A DNA stretch of 52,221 nt, filler included, from Sphacelaria rigidula (lineage: Eukaryota), in assembly GCA_964200075.2 (NCBI GenBank). It is 3 parts of 3 records of this genome, joined end to end, with 100 filler letters (N's around TTAATTAATTAA, not from the genome) between each part and the next. Parts side by side here need not be neighbours in the genome. Positions count along the whole stretch, not along the records: positions 34,884 to 52,221 come from CAXNAA020001107.1; 2 more parts are not named here. One strand, given 5' to 3'. The notes under the pieces were generated by a model, which was given only the letters and a program-made list of their open reading frames with translations, did not search any database and was not told the DNA's origin. Made by a program: the position numbers and the translations under genes. This document shows positions 15,001 through 51,331 of this stretch, in pieces. Numbering within the stretch: position 1 is the stretch's first letter; the number at the start of each line of letters is the position of its first letter.

Positions 15001-16603
15001 CAACGCTGGGTAATGACTGTACACGTGTAGGGCGCACGAAATTCCCTGACCCCCCCCTGCCCCCCCCTTTCACCAGGGACCATCAAACGCTACTTCAGGG
15101 GCTATTGTGTCTTCGTTCAACTTTACAGGTACCCTCGGTGAATGAAACAAAAACGATCACAAGCAACAAGCAAATTGAGAGATACACCAGCCGAGTCTAT
15201 GGTCTGCTGCTGATGTCTACGCCCCGGCCACGCCTCTTACGGTCACGTCAAGAAGGAGTATGGAGAAGTGGTAGCCCCTGCCAATCATTGCTGCGTTATT
15301 TAGCTCTCGTGTGAGCGTGGTGCCCTTCTTGCTTGGGTCGCTTGTTTGGTGCTCTTGTGCTTCATGTGTGCGGGGGCGGTCGGGCCTTCCAGACTACTGA
15401 GGGAACGGAGAAGGCTGGGCATTCCGATGTTTTTTTCTCACATTGATTCACTTTTCGTCACACATTTAACCCCTCTACCCTTCCTCGGGGCGAGTTCTTG
15501 GTCTCGAGAAATCAACCTTCCTCTGCCTCAGATTCCGATGGCTAATACAATTAAGTCGAGAGTCAGCGAAATAGCGAACAAATCGAACCCCCCCGACAAG
15601 GCATTCCAACACATGAGAGCCGGAGGCCTCCCAACCCAATGTTTCGATTGTGTGAGAGTCAACAAACGTAATTATCCGTGAGTATCTGTACACATTTCGA
15701 GTTCAATACTGTAGTAGTGGTGTTCGTATTTCGCCCCTGTAGTACCCCCAGACAACGCATTCCAACACATGAGACCCGGAGGCCTACCAACCCGAAATTT
15801 AGATTGTGTGAGAGTCAACAGACGTAGTTATCCGTAAGTATCTGTACACATTCCGAGTTCGATACTGTAGTAGTGGTGTTCGTATTTCGCCCCTGTAGCT
15901 TTTGGGCGGCAGTTCATGTCCAGATAGTATGGGTTACCAAATAGCTTCCACTGCATTGTATTTTCTCGCACCTATTGTCCCTTCATTGTCATTTCCTAAT
16001 CAATTGAAGTAATTTAGGTATTAGCGTTGTTACTCTCTCTTCCTTCACTTCCCTTCCCTTCCTTTTTTTTCTTCTCTCGATATCGTTTGCCGAAAGCGCT
16101 CTTTGGTGTTTGGTCGTTGGTGTTGCGAGTGATGAACAATATCAAAATCAATCACATATTCGAACAACATCGTGCAGTTCGTGTGGCTCGAATATCGCAT
16201 CAATGACAGTACCACAGCAGCGCAGTACAGCACAACAGAATCGTTCTTGAGCACAGCTCAGCGCAATACCGCGCCGCACCGCACCATGCAACACGGTACA
16301 GTACGGCAAAACTCTCTCTCAAAATATAATATATCCTCCTATCTATATGGGGATCGGTCACGGCCGGACGTCACCCCCAACATGATGTCAGGGCAGTAAA
16401 GATATGTCTTGGTAATGGTTCAAGCCAACAAGGAGCGTGCGTTAGAGCACCGTATACTTGTTGTATCCGCGAAGAGATGTTCTAGCCGACTCGATGCTCA
16501 CCGCAGTTTGTGCACTGTAGTTGCTGAAAGCTCGTGCCCCGAGTACGCTGCTGCCAGCCTTGATTGTTGTCGAGGGGCGCGCAGGATGGGCAGACATCGC
16601 CAT
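6094..16603 (-). CDS. Multi-exon gene for a large protein with C2-like domains (partial model; 3' end unresolved, may be partly degenerate)
   Basis: Phase-consistent GT-AG chain: 16603-16502 (MAMSAHPARPSTT...), 14481-14363, 14203-14164, then a long exon from 13818 (ORF 12913-13872). C2-like halves ALAVRVVEAAPL (about 10050-10080) and RTPYY...EPLFRQVFELQ...MKIVDIHSVIFVGPV (exon from 9780). Further linked exons 6366-6247 and 6181-6094 (...QYIITWNE). Exon-like segments also near 8000-9220 and 550-1900. Middle exons could not be chained. Confidence 0.55.
7551..7743 (+). mobile_element. Telomeric-repeat-bearing MITE, copy 1
   Basis: TGTAATGCGT...ACGCATTACA termini, ~37-bp TIRs, 5-bp TSD ATTCG, degenerate CCCTAA units inside. 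Confidence 0.9.
9797..10010. repeat. Left block of a ~41-bp tandem-unit repeat (TTTGAGTAGAGTATTTGAGGCCGTACTCGACCTACTCAAA), probable DNA-transposon remnant
   Basis: About 3-4 diverged units; outer end resembles the inverted end of the 10510-10853 block. Confidence 0.7.
10510..10853. repeat. Right block of the same ~41-bp unit repeat, ending in TACTCGAGTA-rich terminus ...CTCAACCTACCCTTG (possibly hAT-like)
   Basis: About 5 diverged units plus TACTCGAGTA palindromes; superfamily assignment is a guess. Confidence 0.7.
11800..13090. repeat. Degenerate tandem repeat, 3-4 units of ~280-350 bp
   Basis: Motif ATGAA-CTG-GCA-GTGA-CGGTACC-AT-GAA recurs at about 12001, 12276 and 12626/12853 (the last interrupted by a MITE); CGTACCCTA-TGCT-GATGA recurs near 11861, 12150 and 12492. 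Confidence 0.6.
12642..12852 (-). mobile_element. Telomeric-repeat-bearing MITE, copy 2
   Basis: Near-perfect 37-bp TIRs, 4-bp TSD ACGT, TTAGGG-type array at about 12702-12742; empty paralogous site at 12281-12308. Confidence 0.95.
14609..14859. mobile_element. ~250-bp MITE with ~25-bp terminal inverted repeats
   Basis: GACACTTTCTACGATAGCCCCCCCC ... GGGGGGGGCTATCGTGGAAAGTGTC; no clean TSD. Confidence 0.7.
15589..15898 (+). repeat. Tandem duplication, 2 x 156 bp
   Basis: GACAA.GCATTCCAACACATGAGA...TTTCGCCCCTGTAG at 15595 and 15751, few mismatches. Confidence 0.9.
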
Positions 16604-17343: not shown

Positions 17344-17443
17344 NNNNNNNNNNNNNNNNNNNNNNNNNNNNNNNNNNNNNNNNNNNNTTAATTAATTAAN
17401 NNNNNNNNNNNNNNNNNNNNNNNNNNNNNNNNNNNNNNNNNNN
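17344..17443. other. Assembly gap / artificial spacer (N44-TTAATTAATTAA-N44)
   Basis: Identical 100-bp construct at 34784; the insert gives stops in all frames. Confidence 0.97.
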
Positions 17444-17830
17444 TTTGTTGCTGGCCTTAGTCATTTGACCATTGACCACGCATCCCTTTCGAGACGGAGC
17501 ACTGTTCCTACTCCTAATAGAGACACCTCCAGCATTCCGGCGCTCATTACGTTTTATCCATACAGAACACGAGAGCCTTTTACAGATCTTATCCCCATCC
17601 TGTTTCGCCGTCTCTGGCCACCATCTATCTCTTGGTATAGCCATCGTTTTCTCCCCACTGTCTAATGCATCAAACGATTTTTGGCCACCTTCGTTCACGT
17701 CCCGCATTTCCCCTTTTCCGAGCAGTGGGGGAGGGGGGAGGGGGGAGTTGGCGCACGTTCCAAGAATACGGCATATGTCGTTGGAATGCTCTCCGTACTG
17801 CGGATCGGTTGCATGAATCCAAACTTTCGA
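17444..17830 (-). mobile_element. 3' fragment of a non-LTR retrotransposon (subfamily I)
   Basis: ORF ...RWWPETAKQDGDKICKRL...RKGCVVNGQMTKASNK; homologous to 23566-23650 and 51142-51331; G10 run directly left of the gap. Confidence 0.7.
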
Positions 17831-21800: not shown

Positions 21801-24800
21801 CCGGGCACCATCCCTAGATTTCCACTGCAACTCTACGGGTGCTCCTTGCACGTAATCCCCAGGTTTCTGCTTATGAGGAGCTAATCGATCACGCCGTGCT
21901 GTTGTACTTCGTGCACGTTCGTTCTCTTTGGCGTTTGGGCACCACGTGTAGCCCCAGACATCTCTACCACGTCTATGCGGAGGACGTCCTGGGGCACTTG
22001 CGCGCAAGCAACCTCTGTTCGACACAGCTGGGGTGCAGTCGTTCACGATGATATCCTAGGGATTCTGATGCAAAACGCGGCGACAACAACTTTGCAGTTG
22101 TCTCGCAGAATCGCCGCAAAATATCCGTCACGGGGGGTATATTTCTCAATCGAGTAATAATAATGAAAATGGAGGGATGGAAAGAGAGAGAGAGAGAGAT
22201 AGGCTCTGCGCGCATTTATGAGACCATAGAAGTTGGGTAAAAATATCTGAAGCACCGCATGAACGGCGGTAGATATAGTCTACATTCCGACACAAGAACT
22301 TTCGGAAGACAAACTGTTGGCTTGAAATTTTCTTTGCTTTGAGTCATTTCGTGTGCGGCTCTTGGAACAACTACTGTGGGGTGTGGCAGCGCCTTTCGGA
22401 ACAACCCTCACTGAAACTCGTGCGAGAAGCTCTACCCCGGCATGGTTCGATCAACGTGTTCTATGGACTATTGACTCAGGTTTCATATATGGACTCACAG
22501 GATCATCGCGCCGCGGTAGAAATAACAACGTCGACTCGGCTTGAAAAGGAACGAAATAAACCAATGAGGGGGGGGGGGGGCTCATGTACGTCTCGCTCAC
22601 GCCCGTTCGCTTGTTGCTGTTGAGAGATAGTGGGACTGTGTAGGATGTAGTGCAGTGAGGAAACACGACTCATACCGTAAATTACAGCAAAACACCGTCA
22701 CGACACTTTTGCAAACGTTACGAGCGGTATAGAAAATATTGATGCTAACGGCTGCGGTCACTTGCGACCGGTTGAGCTACACCTGACTTTGAGACACTTC
22801 GTTTACGACACCTGACACTAGACGGTAGTAAAAACTTACTGCAAGTGTGTCGACCTTGAGAGCACAAGCGCCACTCAGCTGTTCGAGGCATGGCTACTCA
22901 GCTGTGCGTTGTTGTTGTTGTCACCCCATCTATTCTGGATGCCAGTTTACACCTCTCGGTAAATATGAGCGCATCAGTCGGGGTCAGCCAGGAGTAAGGC
23001 CAACACAGGAGTTTCTGTATTTTTAACTTGTTTCAGTGCTCCACCTTCCTTCTGCGGTGCTCGCCTTTTTTTTCTTGAGAGAGGGGTTTAGCGATCCCTT
23101 TCCATTAGTATCTTTTTCAGCTGTAGCAGTGCTAAACGTGAACCCGTTTAATCCCTGTAGCCGTGATAACAAGGAAGACAATAAACTCAGCAGCCAACAG
23201 AACAAGGGAACAAGACTCTGAACACTCTGTTCCACGCAAAGCACATCTCTCCCTGATTTTTTGTAGCAAGTGGTGTGATCGAACCCACTCCTGACGTCCT
23301 CTGCCCGCAATCCCTTCTTCGGCGCCCATGAGCACGTATTCGCGACCAAGTATGAAAGTGAACGCCGCCGTTTGCAAGCAAAGACGAAGTAAAACGAGTG
23401 TTTTGTAGTACGTGCATGGTGAATACTGAAGCCTCTGTGGCGTCGTCCAAGAGTCAACAGCGTGCGGTGCCGAAATCATTACACGAGCAGTACTTGGCAA
23501 GTGTGCTAGACGCACAACCGACTCTCCTGACGCAGCGTTGTGGGAAGGGACCACAGTGAATCCACGGGGGGGGGGGGGCGTACTCATTACTTGCTTACCT
23601 TATTCGTTTGACCATTGACCACGCATCACTTTCGAGACGGAGCACCGCATGAAACCATGGGGGAATAATAAAAAATCGGAAAATCAGCTGCGCAACTTGT
23701 AGCGCTGCAGCAGCTCATCAACTGCTCGCAAGTACATATCGGTCGAGGCCGACGAAAAGCCGTAAACAGGGTGCACAAGAAAAGTAATGTTGAGCTTGGC
23801 GGCGGGGTGGAGGGGAGTTGATGCTGGGCAGAGCACAGGGTTGGGCCGCTTTTTGCGATCCGAAAAAACACGGCATGAACTTCGGGCAGTGACCTCTCCT
23901 CACGGCTTTTCTCGACGAAAAAATGTATTCGAGGGCGCTTCTCATGACTATGAAAAACTTCGGCAGCTTCCACACTAAGATGGCGGCGGGGCGCCGACCC
24001 AGGTGACATTTGCCAAAATTCATTTTGGTAAACGAAAAAGCGGCCGCGTCGTTGTCTACAACTAGGCGTTGTCTGCATGTCATCTATCGTTCAGCATGCT
24101 GCTCTAATTCCTGCCTGCCTACCTGCCTGCATGTGACATACTGCACAGCAATGTGCCACCATGTGTGTATTGTTTGAATACTGGTGCACACTCTCCCGTC
24201 CCCGACCGCCGCCCGACTGGGGATGCTTGTGTCAGAGGTACCTGACCAAATGGGACAACCACACATCAAGAGAGAGTGATGTCACCTACAGACTGGTCCC
24301 TGTTTTGTATCTGCGGTGATGCAACACAAAACCTAGCCAGTGGGTCATGCCGACAGGCTTGAACTTCAGGCTCAACCCTGTAGCTGCTGAGTTCTACCCT
24401 GTACTGGGACCCAAACTGATCCCCGCAGCTGCAGAGTGGACCCCAAGTAGGGGCACTGTAACGGAAACCATGTTGATGGAGATCAGACACATGTGAGTGA
24501 ATGCCAGATTTGGCGAACTGGAGCTAGCGGCCGACGTGGGCTGAAGAGGCTGTATCGTCCCCGCGAGACCAAAACGCAAGGCAAGGCTCATGGCCGACGT
24601 GCCAAGGAAAATTGGGACAAAAAAATCTCGCATAGCCTTGATCGGCGTGATCGTATAGCGGTTCACGACAGACCCAGCCACCGTCTCAGACCTGGTACGT
24701 TCAGTTTATGCACCAAAAGGTCACAACGGTGAACACCTAGAGTGTTGCCCCAGGAGAGGGTGTGGCACGCGGTGTGGGGAATGCTATAGGGGGATGACGC

Positions 24801-33084: not shown

Positions 33085-34078
33085 CTTCAGTTGGATTTCC
33101 TCTTCCATGACCACTTTCCATTTGTCAGCATCAGGTTCTGCCAGGGCTTCTTTCGCTGTCGACGGTTCCTGTGGTCCAGTCACGATTCCGCCCGCGAGCA
33201 TGCAGAATGCGCCTTTGTCCTCTTCTTGTAGAAGGGTGTCAAGAAAATTTCCGTCATCAGAACTGCTGTCGCCAACACTCCCAAAGCATTACTGTATGTT
33301 GTCCCCCCGACGCCGTTGCGCCAGTCGACTGGACCTGCGTAGTCCACTGTCCGGAGGAGAGCGCTTCGATGATGTCGAGTCCCGTGGTGGCTGTCCACCC
33401 GGGCCGTCATTGCCGTCGATTGGTGCTGCTTCCTCTTCCCATGGTTCGTCCTCGTCATCACTGAGTTCGACCGCCTCCAGCTCCCCCAAGATGTCTACGA
33501 TCTTGGCCTCTGATTTAAACGTGATGTGTGAAGACTTGACGAGCTTTGATTCCTGTATCAGCCATACATACCAGCAGAGAGAGTGCCGATTGTGCCCCAC
33601 CAAGATGCCCCGCTTCGCATATGGGTGGAACTTCGCAGCGGCGCCGCGTTGCTGCTTGTGCTGATGCACGAAACACTCGGATCCCCAAGTACGAAGCCGG
33701 TCGTAGTTGAAAGACTTTCCTGTCAGCCTCTCACATGGGGTCTCGCCCCCGAGGTACTCGTGGGGCATCCCCATGGTCTCTAATGCCGCGTCCGCCACAG
33801 CGAAGAACCAGTAGTCCTCTCCGCGTCCCGCTTCCACCTGTTGGCTACGTACTATCCTGATCAGTTGTTGAATTGCACGCTCACCAATTCCATTACTCTG
33901 CGGTGTCCTTGGCGGGGAGGAGCGCCACTTGATGCCGCGATTGGTCAGCATGCGTTGAAATTTGACTGACTGTCCAAGATCCCCAGCGCCATCTCTGCTG
34001 ATGCTTATAATGGCTACTCTCACGGGCCATTTCGTCGATGTAGGCTCCCGTGGTGTCAGTGTCCGCATCTCGTGTCTT
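33085..34078 (-). mobile_element. Ty1/Copia pol fragment: integrase core, SH3-like region, linker and first residues of RT
   Basis: ISRDGAGDLG...SPPRTPQSNGIGERAI...ETPCERLTGK...LRTWGSECFVH...KFHPYAKRGILVGH (ORF 33289-34089); EPSTAKEALAEPDADKWKVVMEEEI (ORF 32926-33201); truncated both sides. Confidence 0.9.
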
Positions 34079-34462
34079 GAGCTTTTCATTAAGGATGAGA
34101 ACCCGGAGGATCAAAATCTTCGTATCCACACCAAATCTTTGGAATATGGTTCCATTCTCACCTACTGGTCGCTATTGACCAGTGCTACACGCCCCAAAAA
34201 TTTGGACTTCGATAACCGAAATTTTGGGGTCCTGGGTAAGAAATCGATTCAGAGGAATTACGGCGATCCGATCGGATCACCTAGGTTCCACATTATGTTT
34301 CATCAAGGACCCCAACATCTTGGTTATCGAAATCCAAATTTGTATGGCGTGTAGTAGTTGTCAATAGCTAGCAATAGGCGAAGGAATGGAACCATATTCC
34401 GAAGATTTGGTGTGGTTCCGACGATTTTAATCCTCCGGGTTTTCATCCTTAATGAAAAGCTC
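34079..34462. mobile_element. 384-bp foldback (palindromic) element
   Basis: GAGCTTTTCATTAAGGATGA...TCATCCTTAATGAAAAGCTC; arms pair imperfectly to a central GATCCGATCGGATC at 34265-34278. Confidence 0.85.
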
Positions 34463-34783: not shown

Positions 34784-34883
34784 NNNNNNNNNNNNNNNNN
34801 NNNNNNNNNNNNNNNNNNNNNNNNNNNTTAATTAATTAANNNNNNNNNNNNNNNNNNNNNNNNNNNNNNNNNNNNNNNNNNNN
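34784..34883. other. Assembly gap / artificial spacer (N44-TTAATTAATTAA-N44)
   Basis: Same construct as 17344-17443. Confidence 0.97.
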
Positions 34884-34957
34884 ACTTAAAGCGAATGATC
34901 AAAGCCACTCTCAATCGTATCATCTACTCTCAATCTCACGAAAACACTGTTACATGT

Positions 34958-35149
34958 GCTGATGCGTGAGAGGACCGCGCCGCGGTTCTAAATACCGCAG
35001 GATCGACGTTCATGACCAGTCGGGCCAGTCCCTGAAAGTACCACCCCCCCAACCATGACCTCACCTCTAACCGTAGCCCTAACCCTAGCCATGGGTATGT
35101 TCAGATTGCGGTACTGTCCTCTGAGCACCCGGTCCTCTAACGCGTTACA
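34958..35149 (+). mobile_element. Telomeric-repeat-bearing MITE, copy 3 (old, diverged)
   Basis: GATGCGTGAGAGGACCGC...GGTCCTCTAACGCGTTACA with degenerate CCCTAA units; no TSD recognisable. Confidence 0.8.
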
Positions 35150-36891
35150 CTAGCGTCGGACGAGCACGACCTTGACTCGTGGTACTCGCGAACTCGTGGG
35201 CTGCTTGTCGGGAGTTCGTGAAGATCTTCGAACACGCAGTTCGTTGCGGGCTATGAAAACCTCCACAGAGCGAGTACCCTCGTCATCGCTTGCTGTGAAA
35301 AACTTCGTGGAGTGGGAACACGCGTCGTTGGTCCTTGTGAAAGTATGAAGTATGGGCGAGCCCTCGACTCGTTGCTCGTGGCGAACGCCTGAAATCGACA
35401 AAGCTCCCGCGAAGTAGCTTGACAGTGTTTCGCACCACCGCCTTCTCCCTGCATTCGTTGGTGCAGCTCCGCTTGTATGATTGAATACAGTCTAGGGACG
35501 GGGGGGTGGCTGTGCCGCACGAGCGCGGCTGACGCAACATGGGTAACATGTGTAGAACGGAGGCTAGCGAGCTCTCTCGTTGGCCGGTTGCTGGGGATTG
35601 ATGGACAATCAACCGACCACGCGTTGGGAGAATGTTATAGCGTGTGCACTCCAGTATTTGCTCGCTGTGGAAAATATGAACGGCTTCCTGTTCTTGCACC
35701 TCATCAAAACGTGATGGGAGCCAACACTTGACTCGTTTCTTCCAGAATAATCAATCGGACGCGTGTCCAAGTCGTTGTTCGCTGTGGAACATCAAGAGGG
35801 CGCAAGCTCGAGCCCCACCCAAGTTTCAAAAAGATGGATCCCGTTTCGACGAGGCATGACGAAACCCATGCGTGCGGGCTGTGCGTTCGGCCAAGTATAA
35901 CACGGGTCGTGTGCAACTTTTCAGCCAGTTCGAACGTTGGCGTGAACACAAATGTATGGCGCCATGAATCGTGTGTCCACGTCGTTCAACAGACATGCTC
36001 CAGCTCATTTCCCCTCGAGGTAAACAAGACGAGTATGGCACACCCACGTCGAACCGTCACTGTTTTCATGTCGACTGGCTCCCAGCGGCAACATTGAGCC
36101 ACGAGACGAAGAGGGTACGGAGGCTTGTGAACTGCAATCGATTAGTTTTCAACGTACAAGTTGTTCAATGACGACAACGGCCATGATCGTAGTCGGGTCT
36201 CAATTATCATACGGGACGCCCATAGGCGACAGTTTTGTCCGAAGAGGGGGGAGGGGGGACCATTGTATGTTGTGCTACAGTACCGCCAATGATCATTCAA
36301 CGATAATCCCCACGTCCTGAGCCATACGACGCATCATCTGGCACACCTGGGGGCTACTGCGGCGGGGTTTGGAGGGAATGAGTGCCCCATTGAACACATT
36401 CCGCCAGTTACTCACAAGTTGCTCCGTGACGGCAACCACAGATCATACCCTACACAAGCTACCATCTACATTATTGATCAACACACTTCAGTATCTTACG
36501 CTGTACAACAAGCCACCGTCTACATTTGTGACCAACATCCGTCCAGTCTACGCATCCTCACCTCCTTTCACACGTATGCCCATTCGGAAAAGACTACTGA
36601 AACGCGGGCTCACACCATCACTACACGTATCCCGACCAAATCGCTGCGGTTTTCTGGGGCCAACATGCAGCACCGCATTTTCATCTCATCACGTGTACAG
36701 TCACCTAGGCCCACCGGTCGAAACAAATTCCCATCGCCCATCAGCACCAGGACTCAAGGAAAAACACAGCGGAGGCTCCCGAAAATCAAACCGTGGGCGC
36801 TTGCCCATCAGGTCGACCTTCGCGAGGAAACCTACTACGGTACTACCGCTCGAAGAGCAGTGGGCGGTTCTTCGGGACTGGTTACGGCCCG

Positions 36892-39352
36892 TTAAGCTCC
36901 AGTCCCGGGCGCGTTACCGCTATTCCCGGGTGCGTTACCGCTATTCCCGGGTGCGTTACCGCTATTCCCGGGAGTCGCTGGCTCAGGCATTGGCGTCGGA
37001 CTCGGCACCGGGGTTGGTATCGCGGTCGGCACCGGGGTCGGCACCGACGTCGGCGCCGGCGTAGGGTCCGCGTTGAAAACGAGCACTTGAACAGCACAAA
37101 TGCTCGGATTACTGCAGATGACGGGGAAACTCTCCGGCGGGTTCCACTCGGGAGCGAAAGTGCCAAACCTGACCGGGGTGCGACCGGCGACAACGCCATT
37201 GACGACCGCGACCACGAAGGGGTTCGTTTCGGCGACCCGCAAAGCCCGGCGGAAGATCGTCACGCTCTCGATCTGCACCCTCACCTGCGATCCGTAGACA
37301 ACAGCAGCGTTCGGGTCGATGGCAAATTGTCAGCGGTCGGGAAGCAGTCCGAGTAAGTATCATCTCTCCTCACTACCTTGTCGGGAACTCGGCTAGTGCA
37401 AAATTATGTTTACCCCATCACGGGGCATGAGGGCAAGGCAGTTCGACGGCAAAGCCCATCCCAAATCGCTGACCGCGATGCGCGGGAGCAGGCACAGCCC
37501 GGCCCGTATCCTTCTCTTCGGGAACGGGGGCATACTGAGTCTCACCACCAAGGTTTCTATAAAACAACGTCGGCACCGCGGCACACCATGCGACGCATGA
37601 TATCCACTACGGTTCTCACATTGATCCCTCCCCCCAGCTGAAGACCGCGGGACGCCTCACTCTCCGCCGAGATGGCGGCTCCCTCTCCTTCGGTCGTTTC
37701 CGTCAGCCTCCGATTTACCAACACAATGAAGATGATCTGTCCGACAACCGTTCCATTCACGTCCACAAGGACCACAACAATTCTCCGGCCGAGTACCAGA
37801 TCTATGATCTCGATAATTCCACCGCCAATCGCGAGGCCGGGAATTCCTGCCGTTCGTATGGACATGCGCAAGGACAGCACGGTCGACGCAAACCGAGCGA
37901 GAGATTTTTCGTTATCGAGGCACATGTGTAAAACGCGCACGCGGTACACCACGACTTGGCAGTACCTCAGCAAATTCGACCCTGACCGAACGGACACCGA
38001 AGCAGCTTGCGGAAGGAGTCAACCAGGCCGAGGTGCCGATCAAGGGTGTGGCGTTGCACAACAGTCTCCGGCACCCCTGGAATTTCACGTTGCGCGTCAA
38101 AACACATGAATCATGAGACAGGCACTTGTTCGACCTTCATCTCACCCGGAATCGGAAAGATGATGGCCAGCACCGGGGCTGGGGTCGGCTGCGGTGTCGC
38201 AGTCGGCGCCGGCGTGGCTGTCGGCGCCACCGTGGCGGTTGGTGCCGGTGTGGTGGTCGGGGCCGCTGTCGGTGCCGGAGTAAACTTCCTCCTTCCTGCA
38301 AGCGAAATGAACGGAGTACCAACACACGAAGCGGAACCACCATGGCGCGAGGGCGACGTGGGTGCAACGAACGCGGCTCAGGGCACGACCCCCAGGAGTT
38401 TTGGTGTGTGATTCCACTGCGACAGACATGGTACACGTTGGTCGACCTACCGCCCTTGTTCCGCATCTTCGACACATGTTTAGCACTAGTCTCTACTCGC
38501 GCCGTTCACGAATATCGAGTTGCACTGCTGTCTTCAGCGCTGACCACGGCATGGCACACCAAAGGTGGCCCAGTGCGCGGTGCACGCACCACGGAACCTC
38601 CGTCCTCTGCGACGTCTTCTGCCCCCCCTTCTCCGTCTCCTCCTGCCCCTACCCCTGCCCCTGCCCCTCCTGCGGCGTTTCCTCCTGAGGCTCCTGCCGT
38701 ACTCTTCACCTGGACGTGCGGTGCAACACGACGGCGGAGCGGGGCGACTTCGGATGGGGATACGATACAGGCGGACCCTGTCAGAGGCAGCACCCACGTC
38801 GAGCGGGTTGTGACCACGCCAGGTGCATGACTGCACCACCGATACCCGTCCACGACACGGCAACGACTAGATTTTTCCATCGAAACTCCTCACCCTCCCG
38901 AGGGCTCACCTTGCCCTGATGCTCGTGTGACCGAGCCTCCGGCAACAGACAGAGCCAAGTCTGTCGGTCTCTCCTCTTCCCGCAGTGCCACCGCCTCAGC
39001 TGTTGGCCCTGACACATACGTTCACGGACATGGAGTTCGGGCGCTGAAACTCCCTCGGCCATGCACGCGCCAGGAACACACGACACACCCGGAGAGCACC
39101 CCGAACGCGTCAGCGAAGTCAACGCTGTACAAGTTAACACCAAGCCAGCTCCGGGATCAACGCCCAAGGTCTACCGTAGACATGCGACACTCATGTGTAC
39201 CATTTCCGATCCGCTTACACGAGCAGTACACGAAAGCCGTAATGTTCGCGACAAAAGGTGTGCGACTCACCTGCTGCAGCCGAACGCGCGAAGAGAGCCA
39301 AGCAGAAGATGATCCCAATCACGCATCCGTACAGCCTCTTCGTCGACAACAT
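36892..39352 (-). CDS. Secreted 356-aa protein: signal peptide, RxL motifs, poly-Arg tract, Pro/Thr stalks, permuted C2-like domain, GNSGNAP repeats
   Basis: Six GT-AG exons 39352-39271, 39008-38910, 38709-38590, 38295-38146, 37846-37620, 37284-36892 sum to 1071 nt in one open frame from ATG to TAA. N-terminus MLSTKRLYGCVIGIIFCLALFARSAAA; C2 motifs NPFVV, GRTPV, APEWN, ESF, VQVLVFNAD. Confidence 0.85.
36904..36972. repeat. 3 x 21-bp coding tandem repeat (PGNSGNA on the minus strand)
   Basis: CCCGGG(C/T)GCGTTACCGCTATT repeated three times in the last exon. Confidence 0.9.
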
Positions 39353-40908
39353 CCTGCTTCACCACCCGGTGGATCCCCACCAGACGATCGCTCCCTGTGG
39401 GTCAATCATTAGCAAAAAACTGAATAAAAAGAAAAGCGGCATCTCTGCGCTTGACAAGATACAACGCAGAGGCTCTCGTGTGTGGGATGACCGCGTATTC
39501 TCTTCACCTGGTTGAGGTTAATGCTGGGGTTAAAATCAAGAGCGGGGTTTCCGCAGGTACTCCCTGAACCGAGGTGTAGAAACTCGTCCACCCCGGTGTG
39601 TTCAAACTACGCGTGCTTTCCACCCATCACGGGCTCAACGCCCTCGTCAGTACGGGTGTGTCGGTACTCTCTCGGTTCATCTGTATACTCAAACCTACAC
39701 ATCGGGTGAGGGTCAGATCCTCCGCCAGCTACTTCAAGAGGACTCGAACGGGTCAACGTATGACGCCAGTGCCGCTCCCGCACGTTCCGAGCTCAAGTCT
39801 CAGGGCGGGCAACTTTTGAGGGGAGGTCTCCTCTGATTCCGCGGAGACTGAGTACCCGTCCTGTTTCACAACAACGAGTCTCGGTGTGCCGCCGCGCGAC
39901 AACTTACACCAGACACCCCTCACCTCTTTCTTCAAAACATGGACACGTGAACATCACTCCTCCGTAAACTCAACGTCACGAGATATGTGTCTTCTTTCGC
40001 GCCAACACACTCTTAATTGAAAAAACGGCCTCTATTGGTCACGCCATGAGCAGACAGAGGCGGTCGCCCAGCAAAAACCGGCGAAGACCGGGGACTTGGC
40101 TGCGCACGAAGCCACACTCAAAATCACCACCGTCGAAGAGGCAGACACATACACACACACACAGCGCGTGCACACGGCAAGACAGCCCTCACTCTGCTCT
40201 CTCACCCTCACGCGTATCCCCGACGGTGCTGTAGTCCAGGAATGGAGCGGACGACCGTGACACGGACAGTTGTTGTGAGGACGCGGGGGGGAATGGGGGT
40301 AAGGGGGGGGGGAGGGGGCGGTTACAACAACAGACGACAGCGTGACGGCTCGTGTTCCATCCTCCTGCGAGCACCTGTCCTCTCACCTGCCGAACGACTC
40401 CCGCCTGACGAAACCATTGGTACATGTTCCCCATCCCTCCTTTATACCCCACGGATCAAAGGTACACGTTTCCCACAGCTTCATGCGGCCTAAATCATAC
40501 GCACATTTTATCCTAGTTCTGCCCTAATTGTGCATCAGCGCCGAGATTGGAATGATTCAGGACTTGGGCATCTCATACCGTCCACGGCACACGTACAACG
40601 AGTTCCGGGTCAAATGTTCGCCTCAGGTCCCGATTTGAGCCCCCAAAGCGCATCTTCTTTCTCCTAGGACACATCGTTCACATGTTTCCGGCTCCCGACC
40701 AAATGCGGTGCATGTATTGTATGCAGTCAAGACACGCCATAGCGGAACTCGGGCTATGATACGACGTTAAAAAAGCCAAAATTACAGCGTTGAACTTCGC
40801 ATCTACGTTCATTGCAGAGAGCGCACAGGTCAATCCGGGTAGGCCCGAGCATCACGGTCTCTCTAGCGGGCACAGAGACACTGCGGGCGCTGCACCCTGC
40901 TTGGGTGT

Positions 40909-41146
40909 TGTGATGCAAAAGAGGACCGCGTGCTCAGGGGATCGCATGATAGTTCGAAACACCTCAGGATCAGCGTTTTTGGAAACAAAATCGGCGTAGT
41001 CCCTGCATGGCCACACCCCTGACCCTGATCCCAACACCGACCGTAACCCCAACACCAACCCTAACCCTAACCTTAACCCCAACCATAGGGTCGTTCAAAT
41101 TCCGATGCGGACCTCTAAGCACGCAGTCCTCTCATCACGCATTACA
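40909..41146 (+). mobile_element. Telomeric-repeat-bearing MITE, copy 4
   Basis: TGTGATGC...GCATTACA; long partly degenerate CCCTAA array; flanks GTGT/GCGT (4 bp, 1 mismatch). Confidence 0.85.
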
Positions 41147-41255
41147 GCGTGTCAAGCACGACCGCCACTCTCTTCACTTGCAACTGTTATGCCCCTGTGG
41201 TGTGTCCACAGCGTCACAACCGAGAAAAACGCCGCGGAACCTCAGCTGTGCGGTT

Positions 41256-41435
41256 TGAAATGCGTGAGAGGACCGCACCGGAATTAAACATCTTCTTGGT
41301 CAAGCTTAGGGTTAGGTTTAGTGTTGGGGTTGTGGTCAGGGGCGTTGTACCTGCAGGGACTGGGGCCCGATGGGTTTTGAAAAACATCGATCCTGAGGGG
41401 TTTCGAACTGCGGCGCGGTCCTCTCACGCATTACA
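41256..41435 (-). mobile_element. Telomeric-repeat-bearing MITE, copy 5
   Basis: TGAAATGCGTGAGAGGACCGC...GCGGTCCTCTCACGCATTACA; 5-bp TSD CGGTT; TTAGGG-type units. Confidence 0.9.
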
Positions 41436-42372
41436 CGGTTGCTCCGCGTGGAGGCGTGTTTCCCAAACTGGATAGCCGGACTTTGTTGCCGTCGCTCGTT
41501 CCGGGCTCCAGAAACCTTTAGACGTCGACCGACCACAACGCTACCGGAACGGTTTTACGTGATGAAGCTTCCATCACGGACATTCGAATTTTTCAATGGA
41601 GGGGTGACAGTCCCGCCCGGAGACATAAACCTCTTCGCGGATCCCAAGAAGTTCAGTATGAAACCAGGAAAACTGCGGAAAACCTGCGTACTGTGTGCCC
41701 ATCTTTTCTCGATTTTCTCTGATATGTTTTTCGTTCCAAGTTCCGAAGAACACGCGAGACCACCTCCGACCTGAAGCGGCTACTTCCACTTCGCCACATA
41801 CTGTAACCCATCTGCCTACCATAGGTAGATCGTGGCCCGATGGTGTGAGCACTACCAGATCATGACCGCTTGGTAACGCAGTGCCGATCGTGATCGGAGC
41901 GAGCGGGATTCGTGATGTTCACGCGATTTTGTCGCCCAATACTCATGGCTCAAACATCCTCGATCCCAGGGGCAAAGCCGGGATTCAACCCCTCCGTGGA
42001 ACGTCTTTTCGTCGCTGCCTTCTTTCCTCGAATCAGGATCACTTGACCTCGTCTTCAGACCGTCATGGTTGGACGGTCAGCGCTCGAATTTTCTCTAGCG
42101 CGGGTACGTTTTGGTCGACATGCCGGATCTTAGAAGCCATCACAGAACAAACCAGACGCCGGGGGAATCCTACAAACCGCCGGGACCACTTTGTATTCAA
42201 AACAACAAAGGAAGCGTGCACACATGCACATTGGCCCAAAAACACTCGCAAATCGCACGTGAACAGAGCAAAACGTGAAATAGCTGCACACCAAACGCAC
42301 ACTATTTTACGGGGTAGTAGTGCACCATGCCGACATTGCAGTCGTCTCAGTGAACCCTACATTCTTGCACAG

Positions 42373-42380
42373 TATATATA

Positions 42381-42411
<31 letters not shown>
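42373..42411. repeat. (TA)n microsatellite
   Basis: Direct reading. Confidence 0.9.
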
Positions 42412-42661
42412 CATGCTGCAATGGCGAAGGGGAGCTGTGTAGAGCCCGTTTTCGCCGCGAGCTTGACTGATGCGCATCACGACCCGTATTTCGCCCAGTT
42501 TCGTCAAACACCGAATTTCGTTCCGAGCCCAGCACATCAGCATTTTGGCTGTCATAAGTCTCTCGACGACACCGTCTTATTTCAAGCCATGGACTGTCTT
42601 GCCCAAACTAACCCATCGGAAGGTTGCCGTGAACAAGCCGAACTATGATATTGAAAGTGAG

Positions 42662-42846
42662 CGTCATGCGTGAGAGGACCGCGGTGGGGACCGCCCGTTG
42701 TTCCGAATAGCTCAGGATCGACGTTTTTCGAAACCAATCGGGTCAGTCCCTGCAGGTACCACGCCCCTGACTCTAACCCAACGCTGACCCTAACCCTAAC
42801 CCTAGGAAGGTTCAAATTCCGATGCGCGGTTCTCTCACACATTACA
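42662..42846 (+). mobile_element. Telomeric-repeat-bearing MITE, copy 6
   Basis: CGTCATGCGTGAGAGGACCGC...CACACATTACA; flanks GTGAG/GCGAG (5 bp, 1 mismatch); CCCTAA units. Confidence 0.85.
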
Positions 42847-42929
42847 GCGAGCACCATTTATTTAGACTATGTATAGGCTGGACCGCCTAAGACGCAGACA
42901 GGGATGTGAACACGCGATTTAACAGCTGA

Positions 42930-43182
42930 GTTTCAGGTCTTTTTCTATGAAATTTTGACACGATGTACAGGACGTATGTACCAAGACGCCACCTTTTCCC
43001 CCATATGCCCTTTTTTTTTTTTCGAGTTATTCACGATTTTATTCCGAAACAAACTGTTCTGAAATGTTTGGTTGTCGATAACTCACGGGGAAAAATTAAA
43101 TAATTTAGAGGGGGAAAGGTGGCGTCTTGGTACACACATCCTGTATATCGCGTCAAAAATTTCATTGAAAACGACCTGAAAC
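42930..43182. mobile_element. ~250-bp foldback MITE with ~73-bp inverted arms
   Basis: GTTTCAGGTC...GTACCAAGACGCCACCTTTTCCCCC pairs with GGGGGAAAGGTGGCGTCTTGGTAC...GACCTGAAAC. Confidence 0.8.
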
Positions 43183-44011
43183 GATGTGTTCACCGCTTGG
43201 TAGGATGAAAAAAGATCTTGGAGTAGTCACGGTGTGTGCAAGTGCTGAAGAGGATAATAATTGTTTTTTTCGCACATGAGCCTGATGTTTGGAACAATAC
43301 CTCTGGCGACATCTGTTCGTCAACAACAGTTGTCACCTCGTTCGTGACAGTCCCGGAAAACTTGCGCCGCTTCTCAGCAAGAGCGAGCACACAGCACACA
43401 CACCCGACGCGCACACGCTCAGTCAATGACACACACACACCCTCAAGCACAAACACACACACAAGGGCATTGTGCAGTATTCCTGCTGCGCCTCGATGTG
43501 CCAAGTCGCTGCAGTGTACCAGCTTGGAGAAGAAGACCTCACTTGATACATACAGTAAGTAGTCTGGCTACATGTGCACGCCTACACTACAGGAGTAGTA
43601 TTTGCGCAGCACACCTCCCGCTGCTGCAATTGTCATGCGGGCGATGTAGCCCGAGGGCAGAGCGACACAGTTCGACACAGCTCGAGAGTCTATGCCAAGG
43701 CTGCATCATTACACCACAGCGAAATTTTGGGCTTGTACCCGGAAGAGGTTGGGCATGGGTAGCAGCTATGGTGTGTAGTTGAGTGAATTCCATGCTGTAC
43801 TGGCGGGAAATCATACCATTCTGGCGGGAATCTACGGCGACAATGGAAGCTCCGTTCTCCGACGAGGAGGCGGGCTTATTGCCGAGGAACTGGACGGGAT
43901 GCCTTCGACCCGTTTTTTTCCGGTCGACACTCAACACGCGGGCTATAGCGCTCATCCTCCGGCAGTATACTCTGTACAATGTACAAAACGACCCCGTTTC
44001 TTCTGCCAGGC

Positions 44012-44240
44012 TGTAATGCGTAAGAGGACCGCGTGCTCAGAGGACCGCGCCGTAGTTCAAAACACCGCAGGATCGACCTTTTCCAAAACCAATCGGGCCA
44101 GTCCCTGCAGGTACCACGCCCCTGACCCTAACCCTAACCCTAACCCTAACCCTAACCCTAACCCTAACCCTAACCCTAACCATAGGGATATGAAAATTCC
44201 GGTGCGGTCCGCTAAGCACGCGGTCCTCTCACGCATTACA
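44012..44240 (+). mobile_element. Telomeric-repeat-bearing MITE, copy 7, with (CCCTAA)9
   Basis: 37-bp TIRs, 4-bp TSD AGGC, nine perfect CCCTAA at 44126-44179. Confidence 0.95.
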
Positions 44241-44916
44241 AGGCTACCATATTGGTCGCCATTAGATTTGGTTGTTCTGAACCGGCACTGGTCGTTAGGG
44301 GCAATCCACGCGGCACTGCATCGGAGATGAGGCAAAACATCGAACCAGACATACGGTTTCTTATATCGGGGATCGAGGAGGGGCTAAGCATGGAGGGAGT
44401 GCGGCCGATCGGACGGTTTATGGGCGGAAGTGGCTGAGGTAGTCACGACAGGAACGGCGGCGAAGGGGCAGGCGGTGACGTACAGTCATGGCTGTGTGCA
44501 AGGTGCAAGGTGCTGGACCAGGCATCACTCCATCCTACGGAGCGTCGTGTGTGCAACCGCCCAAGAGTACCCGAAGAAGGGCATGACCGTGGGGATATGG
44601 GGGGTGGGGGGGGACAACGGGGGGTGGCGGCGGCGGGACCGGCCGTAGACGGGAGTTTGGGGCGGAGATGGGAGCGGGGACGGGCGCAGTGACAGCGGCG
44701 GTAGGGGAGGTGGGCGCGGGAATGGGGGCGGCTGCAGCGGCTGCGGTGGCTGGAGGGTGTATATATCTGTGACGTCTGCATCCGATGCCCTAGGGACAAG
44801 ACTGAATGGAACTCGTGAGTTTACGAGAGCACTGTACAGTTATGCGCGCCCTCTGCTTGTACCACGCTACAGGCGTCATCCGCGGTTAAGGGCCGCTTGC
44901 CTTGTTTGTGTGTACG

Positions 44917-45270
44917 TGTTGTCAACCCATCTATCCTGAACGCCAGTTTACACCTTTCGGTATATGTGGGCGCACTAGCCGGGGTCACACAGGAGGAAGG
45001 TCAACACAGGAGTAGTTTTTTCTTTTTTATTTGTTTTTAGTACTGCACCTCCCTTCTGTGGTGCTTGCCTTTCATTTTTATCGCAAAAGGGGTTCAGCAG
45101 TCCCTTTCCCTCGTCGACCGTTAAGACGAATTTTGTGTACCCACGACATAGTCGCTCTCCACTCTTGGGCATGGTGTGGGATAAAATCCCACATCGCGCC
45201 GAGAGTTGAACCCACGATCCAACCGTCAGAAGGTTCCGAGGTTACCAACTGAACCACCGGCGCGACTGGC
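44917..45270 (-). mobile_element. tRNA-derived SINE (~350 bp)
   Basis: Minus-strand head with A-box TGGTTCAGTTGG and B-box-like GGTTCAACTC; body shared with 22908-23105. Confidence 0.75.
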
Positions 45271-45797
45271 TGTCCAGCTGAAAAATAAACATCACAAGTC
45301 GCTTTTTGACTCGCCCAGAAAAACCCCAAACCATCGTCGAACAAGCTTTACGTGAAAAAATCGGTTCGGAATCGCCTCGAATTGATTTGTTCACCGTGCT
45401 TATGAACTTTTCGTATTTTGTGCTCCTCGCCACTCGATTCCGTTTCGCCGATTCGGGGAGGCAGGGGGGAAGGGGGTGAAGCATAATTTACGACGTTGTT
45501 GAGGCAAAAAAATAACTTGGTTTGACTTGAAAATTTCTTCGCGATAAAAGCTTCAAGATGACCGTCTGGGTTCGACCTGATCTTTGATTGCGAAAAATGC
45601 CGTCGTTGGCGACATATCTACAACACCATAACTGAAACGACAAAAATAAAAACAAGTGCGGGATTCGTCATCTCCGCCCACAACTTAGCCTACAGTAAGT
45701 GTTTAGTTGCGTTTGCCTCTGAAACCCCTAAAACGTCGTGTGAAACGCTACACGTGAAATATCGGTTCGGGATCGCCTCGAGAAAATGTCTTCACGT

Positions 45798-45806
45798 TTG
45801 TTGTGG

Positions 45807-45844
<38 letters not shown>
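45798..45844. repeat. (TTG)n microsatellite
   Basis: Direct reading. Confidence 0.9.
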
Positions 45845-45845
<1 letters not shown>

Positions 45846-48800
45846 TTCATGCTCCTTGGCAGTCGATACTGTGCCGCCTACCATTTCATTTAGGTGGACG
45901 CAGGCGTGTCGTTACCTGTTGATCCAGGGACGTCGACTCTGTTGACTTGAATTTTCCATTGCGAGTAAAAGCCCCAACATTCCCGTCTTTGCTCCACTGC
46001 AGTAAATCTTCGCGATACTCCGATCTCTCTACTAAGTACCCTTCATTGTCTCCAACCGAACGTCACTGCTCTGGCGTACTTGTCTCCAGTTACGCAACCG
46101 AGGCAAAGCTCGTGGATTTCTTCAAGCAACTCTAATCACGTTTGATCTCATGTATCGGAGGCAGCGAGAAGTGTTGGAATTAACTTTTGGAACGCGGGTC
46201 TGCAGCGACATCGGATGCGGAAGGATTTTACACGTCCGGCGCGAGTCAGATCGCGCACATGTTTTTGTGGGGGGCGGAGGGTGGAGGGCGCTAAATATGT
46301 TGTGGAAATCGTCAACCACTAGCTGGTGAGTCGCGTTCAGTTGTCTCTCACGCTGTAATCGCTACAATTTGGGGAAATACCGATCCACGAGCATGCATAC
46401 CAGTGAGGCGTCTGTGTAACGCGTGCGATTCCAAGGAAACAGTTGCCCGCCAATAATCTTCTCGGTGTGACCCCACCCATGGTATAGTGGTCAACCTTTT
46501 AAAAAAGCAGGAAAACAAGGCTGACCGGGGGAATTATAGAGGGATAACGCTACTGAGCACGGTGAGGAAAACATTCCGTAAGGTTCTGGACGATAGAAAC
46601 ACTATATTTGTGGGATTCAGAGGGTAGTTTCAGATTCAGAGTGGATGCTCTAGCTTTTCCAACAGCCAACGTTTTTTGTTTTTTTTGCTTGAGCACACGT
46701 GCTGTGCATGCAGCTACCGTACAGTACCCCATTCGAGGAATTCGGCGGTCTGGTTGGTGAGATACCGCACAAAGTATTTTTACCCCTGGGGGGCATTTCG
46801 GAACTGAAACTGTTTCAGGCACTAATCGGTTTTTCCTGAAAGAGGGGACCTTTTGTTGCAATGGACTGACTATGTCGTTGCGATCAAGTGATGTGTCAAA
46901 TTGATCGTCTAGGTGACAGCTTTCATTGAAGCCACCGCTTCACCAGCTGGGCGCACTACTCGTCGAACTGTGGCGATGTCAAAATCGACGGGAAAGTGGA
47001 TTGTTTCGGGTCTCACTCTGAATCCGATGTTACACTCTGAATCTCACGAATAGTGTTAGTTGCAATATGCCTATATTGTACGCAGCATAAGTTTTCTAAT
47101 GCAAATATTGAGCACACGGACTCCATTGTGCCGGCGAGTCATGCTACAGTACAGTAGGGGGAGGGATATTTTGGACCATTTCTTCCAGGGAATTCCACTT
47201 GAACACGTCGTTGAAAGCAGCAGCGGTTGTTGTTACGAACGCGCTTGTTACCGATATATAACGCTGATTCATGCTGCCTGACACCGTTTTACCCAAGTAC
47301 AAGTGCACCGCGAGTGTGGGCCCTTTTTGTTCGTGGAATCACACTCCTCTCCCCCCCCTCCCTGTGTTGTTGCACGATTCCGACAGTGAAAAATGTTTTC
47401 GCGAAATATGGAGAGTCCAGGGTACGATTGAGAGTGAGAAGCGGTCAATTAATGAATTAAATGTTTCAGTCCTTTCGAAATGCCCCTACACGAGGTCTGA
47501 TAGACATTGTGGAGTAGTAGCTTGCCACTAACTGAAGCCTTTGATATCCCCGAGTAGGATATCGACGCGTAGCTGTAGGCATACGACAGTTTTACTTACA
47601 GGCAAACAAAAAAACACACAGAATGAAAACAAAGGCCAAGTTAGAGCGAACAAGAAAAATCTTAATCAACGCTGAACTCTCTTTCTCATGAAAACATTGT
47701 TAATAAATGCAGCAGGCCCATATCTTACGCCGCCGTATACAGTTTTCCTGTTGCAGCTATAATTGCCCACATTTTGTCAAGTGTGCGTAATACTAGTAGT
47801 ACTGTACGCCACGCCCCGGTCGTAAAACTAGCACGACTGAAATTGACTCGACGGGAAGAGTGCGGGTTCGATACCCGCGAGATGCAGCTGCGTTTTTTTC
47901 TGAGAAAAATCCGATTTCCGTCGTTGAAAAAGCGATAAAAAAATGATGAATAGACGATATAGTCAACCAGAGTCGACGCGGTGCGGAAGTGCTGGTCATG
48001 ATCCAGTACGCAATACCAAATACATGTAAGTCGCGTACAGCGGGTGAGATAAAGCTGATCGCCGTGACCACGGACTCGTACCGAGTAAGGGTATGGGAGG
48101 GTTTGAAGAGACAAAAAAAAAGAAGATGGGCTATTTTTGTACGCTAGCCCGGCGTTAATCTTTGACGGTGTCTTCTCTCATTGATCGATTGGTTAGTTGA
48201 TTGTTCCGAGTCACAAATCCAGTCTCCATCGTTATAGTCACCATATAGATACGCGTTTCTAAAGCAACGTATATCGACAGAAACACTTGCTTGATGACGG
48301 AAAAATTCGAGGAATGGAAAAAAGATGAGAAAGTAAGAACAAAGCCGGCAATAAATATACTGGAAGCAACAAGAACGACGTATTAAAAAAGAAGATTCAT
48401 CGAATAAAATAAAATAAACATGCCTACAGTGCAACCGAGGAAGACGCCACGATGGTTATAGCGAACATGTAGGAGTATCAAGTATATCGGTGATCTCATT
48501 TCAAGATCTAGAAAGAAAAACGGGAGGCTTCAGTCGCGTGGCTGCAGGCAAACGTCGCGGCCGCATAATAACAAAACAACGCGAAACAGCGCAACATGAA
48601 GAGGATCCTGGAAGCAGGGTTGCGACTCAGTTACCCGAGGGCGTTACTATCGGGCAGGATCTTTCACCCACGAGTTCTGCAGGAGCAAGACATGCGCGAA
48701 AAAACACTTTGATAATACTCGTATGTATAATACGGGATTTAAGCAAGACCCAAAACCAACCAAAAACTCTGGTGGGGGGGAGGGGGGGATAAGACGAGAA

Positions 48801-51141: not shown

Positions 51142-51331
51142 GGGGGGCGTATCCATTCGTTGCTTGCCTTAGTTGTTCGACCATTGACCACACATCCCTT
51201 CCGAGACGGGGCACCGTTCCTAGTCCTGATGGAGACATCTCCAGTATTCCGGCGTTCATTACGTTTCTTCCATGTATTACACAAAAACCTTCAGATCTCA
51301 TCCCTTCCCTGGGGGGGGGGGAGGGGGAGGG
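51142..51331 (-). mobile_element. 5'-truncated 3' fragment of non-LTR subfamily I with C-runs on both sides
   Basis: Homologous to 17444-17600; G6 at 51142-51147 and G11-A-G5-A-G3 at 51311-51331 on the plus strand. Confidence 0.75.

Follow-up and report, generated by a model that had tools for sequence, protein, structure and literature searches.

Telomere-type repeats that lie away from chromosome ends are usually read as scars of chromosome fusion or as products of break repair by telomerase. A 52,221-nucleotide stretch of the genome of Sphacelaria rigidula (assembly GCA_964200075.2; this whole stretch is hereafter called the window) raises the question of how such a tract can come to lie inside a short dispersed element: at positions 44012-44240, nine perfect CCCTAA units are enclosed between the inverted ends of a 229-bp repeat that recurs elsewhere in the window. 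What is this element, how does it spread, and was its telomere-type array inherited, added by telomerase or retained for some use by the host? The element belongs to a repeat family with inverted ends, flanking duplications, an empty site, independent insertions, high abundance and an inherited array. The answer that we consider probable is that these are non-autonomous miniature transposable elements with inverted repeats (MITEs), of the integrase type, mobilised in trans, in which the array is an inherited passenger that was later expanded in the copy at 44012-44240.

Seven copies and their telomere-type array

Seven copies of the family, 180-238 bp long and in both orientations, were delineated in agreement by BLAST, a MAFFT alignment and an nhmmer profile, confirming the starts, the size range of 180-240 bp and the presence in both orientations given in the original prediction. 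The window strings together three contigs, which are separated by N44-TTAATTAATTAA-N44 linkers at positions 17344-17443 and 34784-34883; the first contig carries two copies, the second none and the third five, all five inside 9.3 kb. The two linkers are identical, their spacer TTAATTAATTAA gives stop codons in every frame, and the order of the contigs across them is not necessarily the genomic order. Numbered along the window, the copies and a more decayed relative are as follows; the one-unit and two-unit forms of the ends are described below the list.

7551-7743, plus strand: copy 1, 193 bp; two-unit ends on both sides; target-site duplication ATTCG; array decayed, about 3-4 units
12642-12852, minus strand: copy 2, 211 bp; nearest to the seven-copy consensus; target-site duplication ACGT; four exact CCCTAA
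34958-35149, plus strand: copy 3, 192 bp; old; left end altered; no recognisable target-site duplication
39510-39636, minus strand: relic of an eighth copy, decayed (nhmmer E 3.6e-7), with a degenerate telomere-like stretch
40909-41146, plus strand: copy 4, 238 bp; old; array of about 12 degenerate units; target-site duplication decayed
41256-41435, minus strand: copy 5, 180 bp; one-unit 22-bp ends on both sides; target-site duplication AACCG
42662-42846, plus strand: copy 6, 185 bp; flanks GTGAG/GCGAG, matching at 4/5 positions
44012-44240, plus strand: copy 7, 229 bp; the copy under study; target-site duplication AGGC

In copy 7, the order is a TGTAATGCG... end, a conserved interior, the CCCTAA run and an inverted end ...CGCATTACA, with the following parts.

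44008-44011, no strand: left target-site duplication, AGGC, next to the contig joint from 44007 to 44241
44012-44048, plus strand: left inverted end, 37 bp; TGTAA terminus plus two 16-bp sub-repeats
44120-44181, plus strand (C-rich strand): array; 10.3 units at 98% according to Tandem Repeats Finder
44204-44240, minus strand: right inverted end, 37 bp; contigs of other copies depart from the window directly after 44240
44241-44244, no strand: right target-site duplication, AGGC, next to the same contig joint

The full 37-bp end comprises TGTAATGCGT and, after it, two direct sub-repeats of 16 bp and of the GAGAGGACCGCG type; these sub-repeats are likely transposase-binding sites. The termini read TGTAA...TTACA, with TGTAA at five of the seven left ends. 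Inverted ends of about 37 bp had been predicted for each copy; this two-unit form is present at both ends in copies 1, 2, 4 and 7, whereas a one-unit, 22-bp form is found at both ends of copy 5 and at one end each of copies 3 and 6. When up to three mismatches were allowed, the 37-mer end matched 6 of the 14 copy ends and the outer 22-mer matched 12, that is, both ends of every copy other than copy 4, in which both ends are too diverged; 100 shuffles gave no match to either query. In copy 2, 37 of the 40 outermost bases are complementary to the opposite end, and for the single-stranded DNA folding predicts a hairpin at -50.6 kcal/mol, the terminal stem of which measures about 35 bp (shuffled sequences, -19.0 +/- 3.1; z = -10.3).

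Outside the array, divergence from the seven-copy consensus amounts to 4.1% in copy 2, 5.8% in copy 1 and 6.4% (11/171) in copy 7, and reaches 17.1% in each of the two oldest copies, 3 and 4. The copies are non-coding: Pfam yielded no match in any frame of at least 75 aa overlapping a copy, Rfam found nothing across the window at gathering scores and nothing on 43950-44300 at E up to 1, and ARAGORN detected no tRNA in the window. Coding content is nearly nil throughout the window (1-52221), where a single one of the 277 stop-to-stop frames of at least 75 aa scored above the Pfam threshold; such sparse coding is in keeping with a repeat-rich part of a large genome.

The array occupies one alignment position in all seven copies, as the original prediction had held, and is separated from each end by at least about 85 bp. 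It is joined to the body of the element on the left by CCCCTG in six of the seven copies and on the right by a ACCATAGG-like junction. Exact CCCTAA units number 0, 4, 1, 2, 1, 2 and 9 in copies 1 to 7, respectively; exact tandem units come to two or three in copies 2, 4 and 6, and to nine in copy 7, where the nine perfect units reported earlier were recovered as (CCCTAA)9 at 44126-44179. All runs of at least two exact hexamers in the window are located within copies of the family. In copies 1, 2, 4 and 5, the first unit is followed by the same variant units, ACCCCA-ACACTA, which also occur in shortened form in copy 6; the source of copies 1, 2, 4 and 5 thus already had a short imperfect array. 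In copy 4, the array is stretched to about 12 degenerate units, an 18-bp duplication included, whereas the 60-bp array of copy 7 is nearly perfect, the shared variant units being absent from it, despite the 6.4% divergence of this copy elsewhere.

This pattern supports inheritance of the array with the element from the source of the family, as opposed to its addition copy by copy. Addition could have been achieved by telomerase repairing breaks at a fragile point of a hairpin-forming element, and the strong hairpin of the element and the pure array of copy 7 are in line with such a process; this origin has been proposed for the short interstitial telomeric sequences of mammals, and the insertion of telomeric repeats at double-strand breaks is on record in primates, rodents and the horse (PMC7215372). 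Independent additions, however, would not recreate the same junctions (CCCCTG in six of the seven copies, and the ACCATAGG-like one) and the same variant units in copies 1, 2, 4 and 5, so that we regard this explanation as highly improbable.

Under the inheritance of a passenger array, the source element of the family would have held a short, imperfect CCCTAA-like microsatellite at a single internal site, and with such a source each transposition would deposit a small interstitial telomere-like tract. Thereafter the array would have behaved as any microsatellite, decaying in most copies, lengthening in degenerate form in copy 4 and attaining 9-10 perfect units in copy 7; for the latter, secondary expansion and homogenisation by slippage within that copy is the most likely course of events. 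A passenger microsatellite that happens to match the telomere unit is the best-supported view of the array.

Insertion sites, abundance and mode of transposition

The original prediction assigned the family target-site duplications of 4-5 bp. Perfect duplications of this length flank copies 1, 2, 5 and 7, and the flanks of copy 6 agree at 4 of 5 positions, whereas no duplication is recognisable at copies 3 and 4. Four perfect duplications of at least 4 bp among seven copies are far above chance, which by our own arithmetic we put at about 1 in 256 for each copy.

The abundance of the family and the state of its insertion sites were assessed with Logan contigs from four public runs (X1, X2, X4 and X5), placed on positions 34890-46000 at 90% likeness; the genome-wide statements made here refer to this one placement of short assembled contigs, and those on array history and target preference to a small sample of seven copies. 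X2 is labelled as an algae metagenome and the other three runs share one organism label. None of the runs listed is an RNA source; four further runs guessed to be RNA contain only 0.09-0.10 of the words and are outside this placement.

Several contigs show the insertion site of copy 7 in the empty state. Those joining 44007 directly to 44241 (one in X2 and two in X4; longest side 54) omit 233 bases, namely, the 229-bp element plus one AGGC, and joints from 44009 to 44244 are found in one contig of X1 (side 55) and one of X2 (side 36). Contigs that depart from the window at 44240 are numerous (102 in X1, 113 in X2, 106 in X4 and 47 in X5) and their continuations agree at just 0.32-0.34; with about 100 contigs per run continuing into unrelated sequence at this position, many other copies must stop exactly there. 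In X1, summed depth is 25,000-164,000 in the bins that contain copies and 74-390 in most other bins (exact-match contigs, about 30), and in the four runs the copies exceed their flanks in summed depth by a factor of hundreds to thousands. Bin means scaled to the element fraction give, as a rough inference, a copy number in the range from thousands to about ten thousand, with the caveat, issued by the tool itself, that summed contig depth does not equal copy number.

The copies have flanks that are unlike one another, and comparison of the third contig with itself by BLAST returned only matches between elements plus one unrelated pair. The cluster of five copies in this contig therefore represents independent insertions; segmental duplication as the origin of the cluster was ruled out by the same dissimilarity of flanks. 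Depth, the exact boundary at 44240 and the empty-site contigs jointly identify the family as a real, high-copy, non-autonomous DNA transposon, that is, a MITE: its ends are inverted, its target-site duplications short and its unit small and non-coding, its copies are very numerous and set in unrelated flanks, and empty sites are seen. On this point, the non-autonomous transposon family of the original prediction is borne out.

Next to copy 3, a very high-copy repeat at 34884-34958, at the start of the third contig, ends at 34951/34958 against the altered left end of that copy; loose ends at 34905/34906 have a conserved continuation, and one contig joins 34951 to 44984.

How the family moves can be proposed from its ends and duplications. 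The copies would be acted on in trans by a DDE transposase related in type to retroviral integrases, the gene for which would lie elsewhere in the genome; this enzyme would stagger the cut at the target by 4-5 bp, giving rise to the flanking duplication. The sequence features are compatible with an integrase-type cut-and-paste element, for which Ginger2/TDD is the best fit. Ginger elements and Gypsy long terminal repeats (LTRs) share the TGTNR terminus (PMC2836005). According to the same source, Ginger1 elements have ends of 40-270 bp and 4-bp duplications, of which 75% are CCGG and 24% CCGT/ACGG, and Ginger2/TDD elements have ends of 50-180 bp, a preference for RTATAY and duplications of 4 bp, or of 5 bp for TDD-4 and TDD-5. 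Duplication lengths are given elsewhere as 4 bp for Ginger1, 4 or 5 bp for Ginger2, 6 bp for Polinton and 3-6 bp for LTR elements, and IS481EU elements, so far from parabasalids, are described as having TGT...ACA ends, duplications of 4 or about 15 bp and an IS481-like transposase (PMC10045372).

Like Ginger2/TDD, the present family has TGTNR termini (TGTAA in this case), ends that are inverted, and duplications that are either 4 or 5 bp long. With Ginger1 it shares the TGTNR termini, and its ends, at about 40 bp, are near the lower limit of the reported range, but none of the four clear duplications is CCGG or CCGT/ACGG, and two of them are 5 bp long. The TGT...ACA ends and the two 4-bp duplications are like those of IS481EU, whereas the two 5-bp duplications and the host range differ. 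The Ginger affinity that was originally proposed thus agrees with the termini and duplication lengths of Ginger2/TDD and disagrees with the target preferences, CCGG/CCGT of Ginger1 and RTATAY of Ginger2; as no transposase is tied to the family, we describe it as working in the manner of an integrase-type cut-and-paste element and refrain from classing it with Ginger. Tc1/mariner, PIF/Harbinger, hAT, Mutator, piggyBac, Transib, CACTA and Polinton were rejected on their duplication lengths or ends, by the customary definitions of these groups together with the lengths in PMC10045372.

A number of observations weigh against an integrase-type MITE with an array expanded in copy 7. The ends, at 22-37 bp, are shorter than the 50-180 bp reported for Ginger2/TDD, of which a short derivative may keep the outer part only, and the targets of the family (ATTCG, ACGT, AACCG and AGGC) are not the AT-rich RTATAY, a mismatch that is weak given that only four sites are available. 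Duplications of 4 bp and 5 bp are mixed in one family, which is unusual, and at copy 7 a 5-bp reading (AGGCT) is available too, with the opening T of the element assigned to the duplication. Within the window, there is no autonomous partner, all ends pairing into short copies, and no integrase frame near the copies or bounded by ends of the family, nor any frame for an integrase-like DDE transposase with an H2C2 zinc finger such as Ginger2/TDD elements encode. The flanks of copy 7 are themselves a low-copy repeat (X1 bin depth 1,000-1,750), so that the empty-site contigs, placed at 90% likeness, are probably paralogous sites and not alleles; paralogous or not, these contigs still display the site before insertion. 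With respect to the array, copy 7 may alternatively stem from a source lineage of its own whose array was pure, given this sample of seven copies, and the chance that an old 60-bp array would show 0-1 changes at 6.4% divergence is, by our own estimate, about 0.1. Finally, TGTNR...ACA termini in combination with duplications of 4-6 bp constitute an LTR signature (PMC2836005, PMC10045372).

This signature raises the alternative that a retrotransposon integrase inserted the copies, which would then be no DNA transposons but solo LTRs or the LTRs of a miniature terminal-repeat retrotransposon. The family is indeed similar to solo LTRs of the Gypsy/Copia type in its TG...CA ends, duplications compatible with 4-6 bp, small non-coding unit and high copy number; a length of 180-240 bp is inside the size range of small LTRs, and a copia fragment is present in the window at 33292-34110. 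The usual inverted ends of LTRs are far shorter than 34-37 bp, however, and are greatly exceeded by the near-perfect inverted ends of 34-37 bp seen here. No two copies in the window have an outer duplication in common or surround a retroelement interior with primer-binding site, polypurine tract and gag-pol, and the copia fragment and copy 3 are on separate contigs, on either side of the linker at 34784-34883. Beyond 44240, moreover, roughly 100 contigs in each run continue into sequences unrelated to one another (agreement 0.32-0.34), implying that few if any copies precede a conserved internal region. Long inverted ends, the lack of pairs around an interior and unrelated sequence past the end thus set the family apart from solo LTRs, and we consider this origin unlikely.

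The host telomere and possible uses of the array

Does the array match the telomere of its host, and could the host make use of it? In this gene-poor window, the copia-type polyprotein fragment (33292-34110, minus strand) is the one feature informative on the first point. It contains an SH3_retrovirus domain (E 8.4e-15), the sole Pfam match above threshold in the window; no reverse-transcriptase frame was detected beside it. In a search restricted to longer proteins, 14 relatives were found at E <=1e-5. The top match, at 73% identity, and six others come without a species name, and the 7 of 14 that have one are all from brown algae, two from Sphacelaria rigidula (69% and 84% identity) and five from Choristocarpus tenellus (47-59%). 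The algae metagenome label of X2 is in agreement with this affinity. In the brown alga Ectocarpus, a putative telomere with (TTAGGG)n is known from earlier work, and the assembly presented in PMC11541908 resolves 43 of 54 telomeric regions. The affinity of the copia fragment to brown-alga proteins and the (TTAGGG)n telomeres of Ectocarpus, considered together, make it reasonable to infer that the host telomere unit is TTAGGG.

On the second point, the original prediction suggested that the arrays recruit telomere-binding proteins, form G-quadruplexes or serve as healing sites. A related possibility, which is compatible with the mechanism of a MITE, is that the host keeps or tolerates the family for a function of its arrays, through binding of telomere proteins, as telomere seeds at breaks or as a source of subtelomeric satellites. 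Retention of the array position in all seven copies, the persistence of short exact-unit runs in six of them, the location of every run of at least two exact hexamers of the window inside a copy and the very high abundance of the family could all be viewed in this light. In Ectocarpus, a subtelomeric 98-bp satellite contains three TTAGGG per monomer, which the authors compare with Chlamydomonas, the motifs of which have been hypothesised to be telomere seeds (PMC11541908). The retained position, however, is expected from plain inheritance, and the arrays decay about as fast as the rest of the element, with no exact unit left in copy 1 and one each in copies 3 and 5. A canonical G-quadruplex motif (four G3 runs, loops <=7) is present in copy 7 only, the minus strand of which contains two; when the loops are widened to 12, motifs appear also in copies 2, 4 and 6, and copies 1, 3 and 5 still have none. 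With exact CCCTAA units scarce outside copy 7 and the canonical motif in one of seven copies, the proposed activities are so far not supported by these copies as properties of the family, and a function of the array in the host appears quite doubtful. We attach similarly little weight to the more specific scenario in which the host would use thousands of MITE-spread tracts, for docking, telomere seeding or as the origin of satellites, with re-expanded copies such as copy 7 being the active sites.

Known counterparts, implications and other repeats of the window

Tandem repeats within transposons, MITEs included, are well known and have been reviewed (PMC5615363). The present family is similar to the MITEs with internal tandem repeats described there in that the array is integral to a small non-autonomous element and grows or shrinks from copy to copy, and differs from them in the repeated unit, which here is the telomere hexamer. 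The TBE elements of Oxytricha offer a second parallel, as very abundant DNA transposons that carry the host telomere repeat in their own sequence; in TBE, however, the repeat is inside the inverted ends, and the element is of the Tc1/mariner type and encodes three proteins (PMC4724952), whereas the family described here is a non-coding MITE with an internal array, integrase-type ends and duplications other than TA. The 98-bp satellite of Ectocarpus likewise has telomere motifs inside a non-telomeric repeat of a brown alga (PMC11541908); compared by description, it is tandem and confined to subtelomeres, in contrast to the dispersed mobile element of Sphacelaria.

No described MITE with an internal array of telomere units was found in our literature searches, and the portions of PMC6532368, PMC5615363, PMC6947457 and PMC9071541 that bear on the subject contain none. 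Four strings from the element matched nothing in a full-text literature search, and a catalogued match in Repbase or Dfam is possible; our literature searches likewise yielded no account of Ginger elements from brown algae. In collections of genome contigs and viral contigs, the end 20-mer and an interior 23-mer had 0 matches. The end 17-mer occurs at 76 loci of a metagenome collection, where BLAST with the whole element matched the seed region only (18-34 bp), and these loci are therefore chance hits.

In the three contigs studied here, one mobile family supplies every telomere-like tract, which amounts to a third route by which such tracts spread, in addition to chromosome fusion and break repair. 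Unless the family is masked, counts of telomere motifs would mislead both the judging of assemblies and the inference of fusions in these algae. Should the transposase turn out to be Ginger-like, that superfamily would be active and highly successful in stramenopile algae, a situation that our searches did not find described.

The window contains other repeats as well. A second one, of about 370 bp, at 44903-45272, is still more abundant than the MITE family; its summed depth in X1 is 1.4 million, and it is skipped by contigs that connect 44902/44903 with 45271/45273. It includes a T-rich tract near 45012 and has a diverged partial copy at 22916-23103 (80% identity). Its 3' part looks tRNA-like by eye; Rfam (E up to 1, positions 44850-45320) and ARAGORN found nothing there. 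This repeat may be an element similar to short interspersed nuclear elements or another short non-autonomous element. A 41-bp tandem repeat with internal inverted symmetry forms two arrays, at 9894-10010 (2.9 units) and 10541-10794 (6.3 units), with 65-76% matches, and two 156-bp units are in tandem at 15589-15898, at 91% identity. A dispersed repeat is found at 17444-17600, the start of the second contig, and again at 51156-51304 and 23591-23645 (82% and 91% identity).

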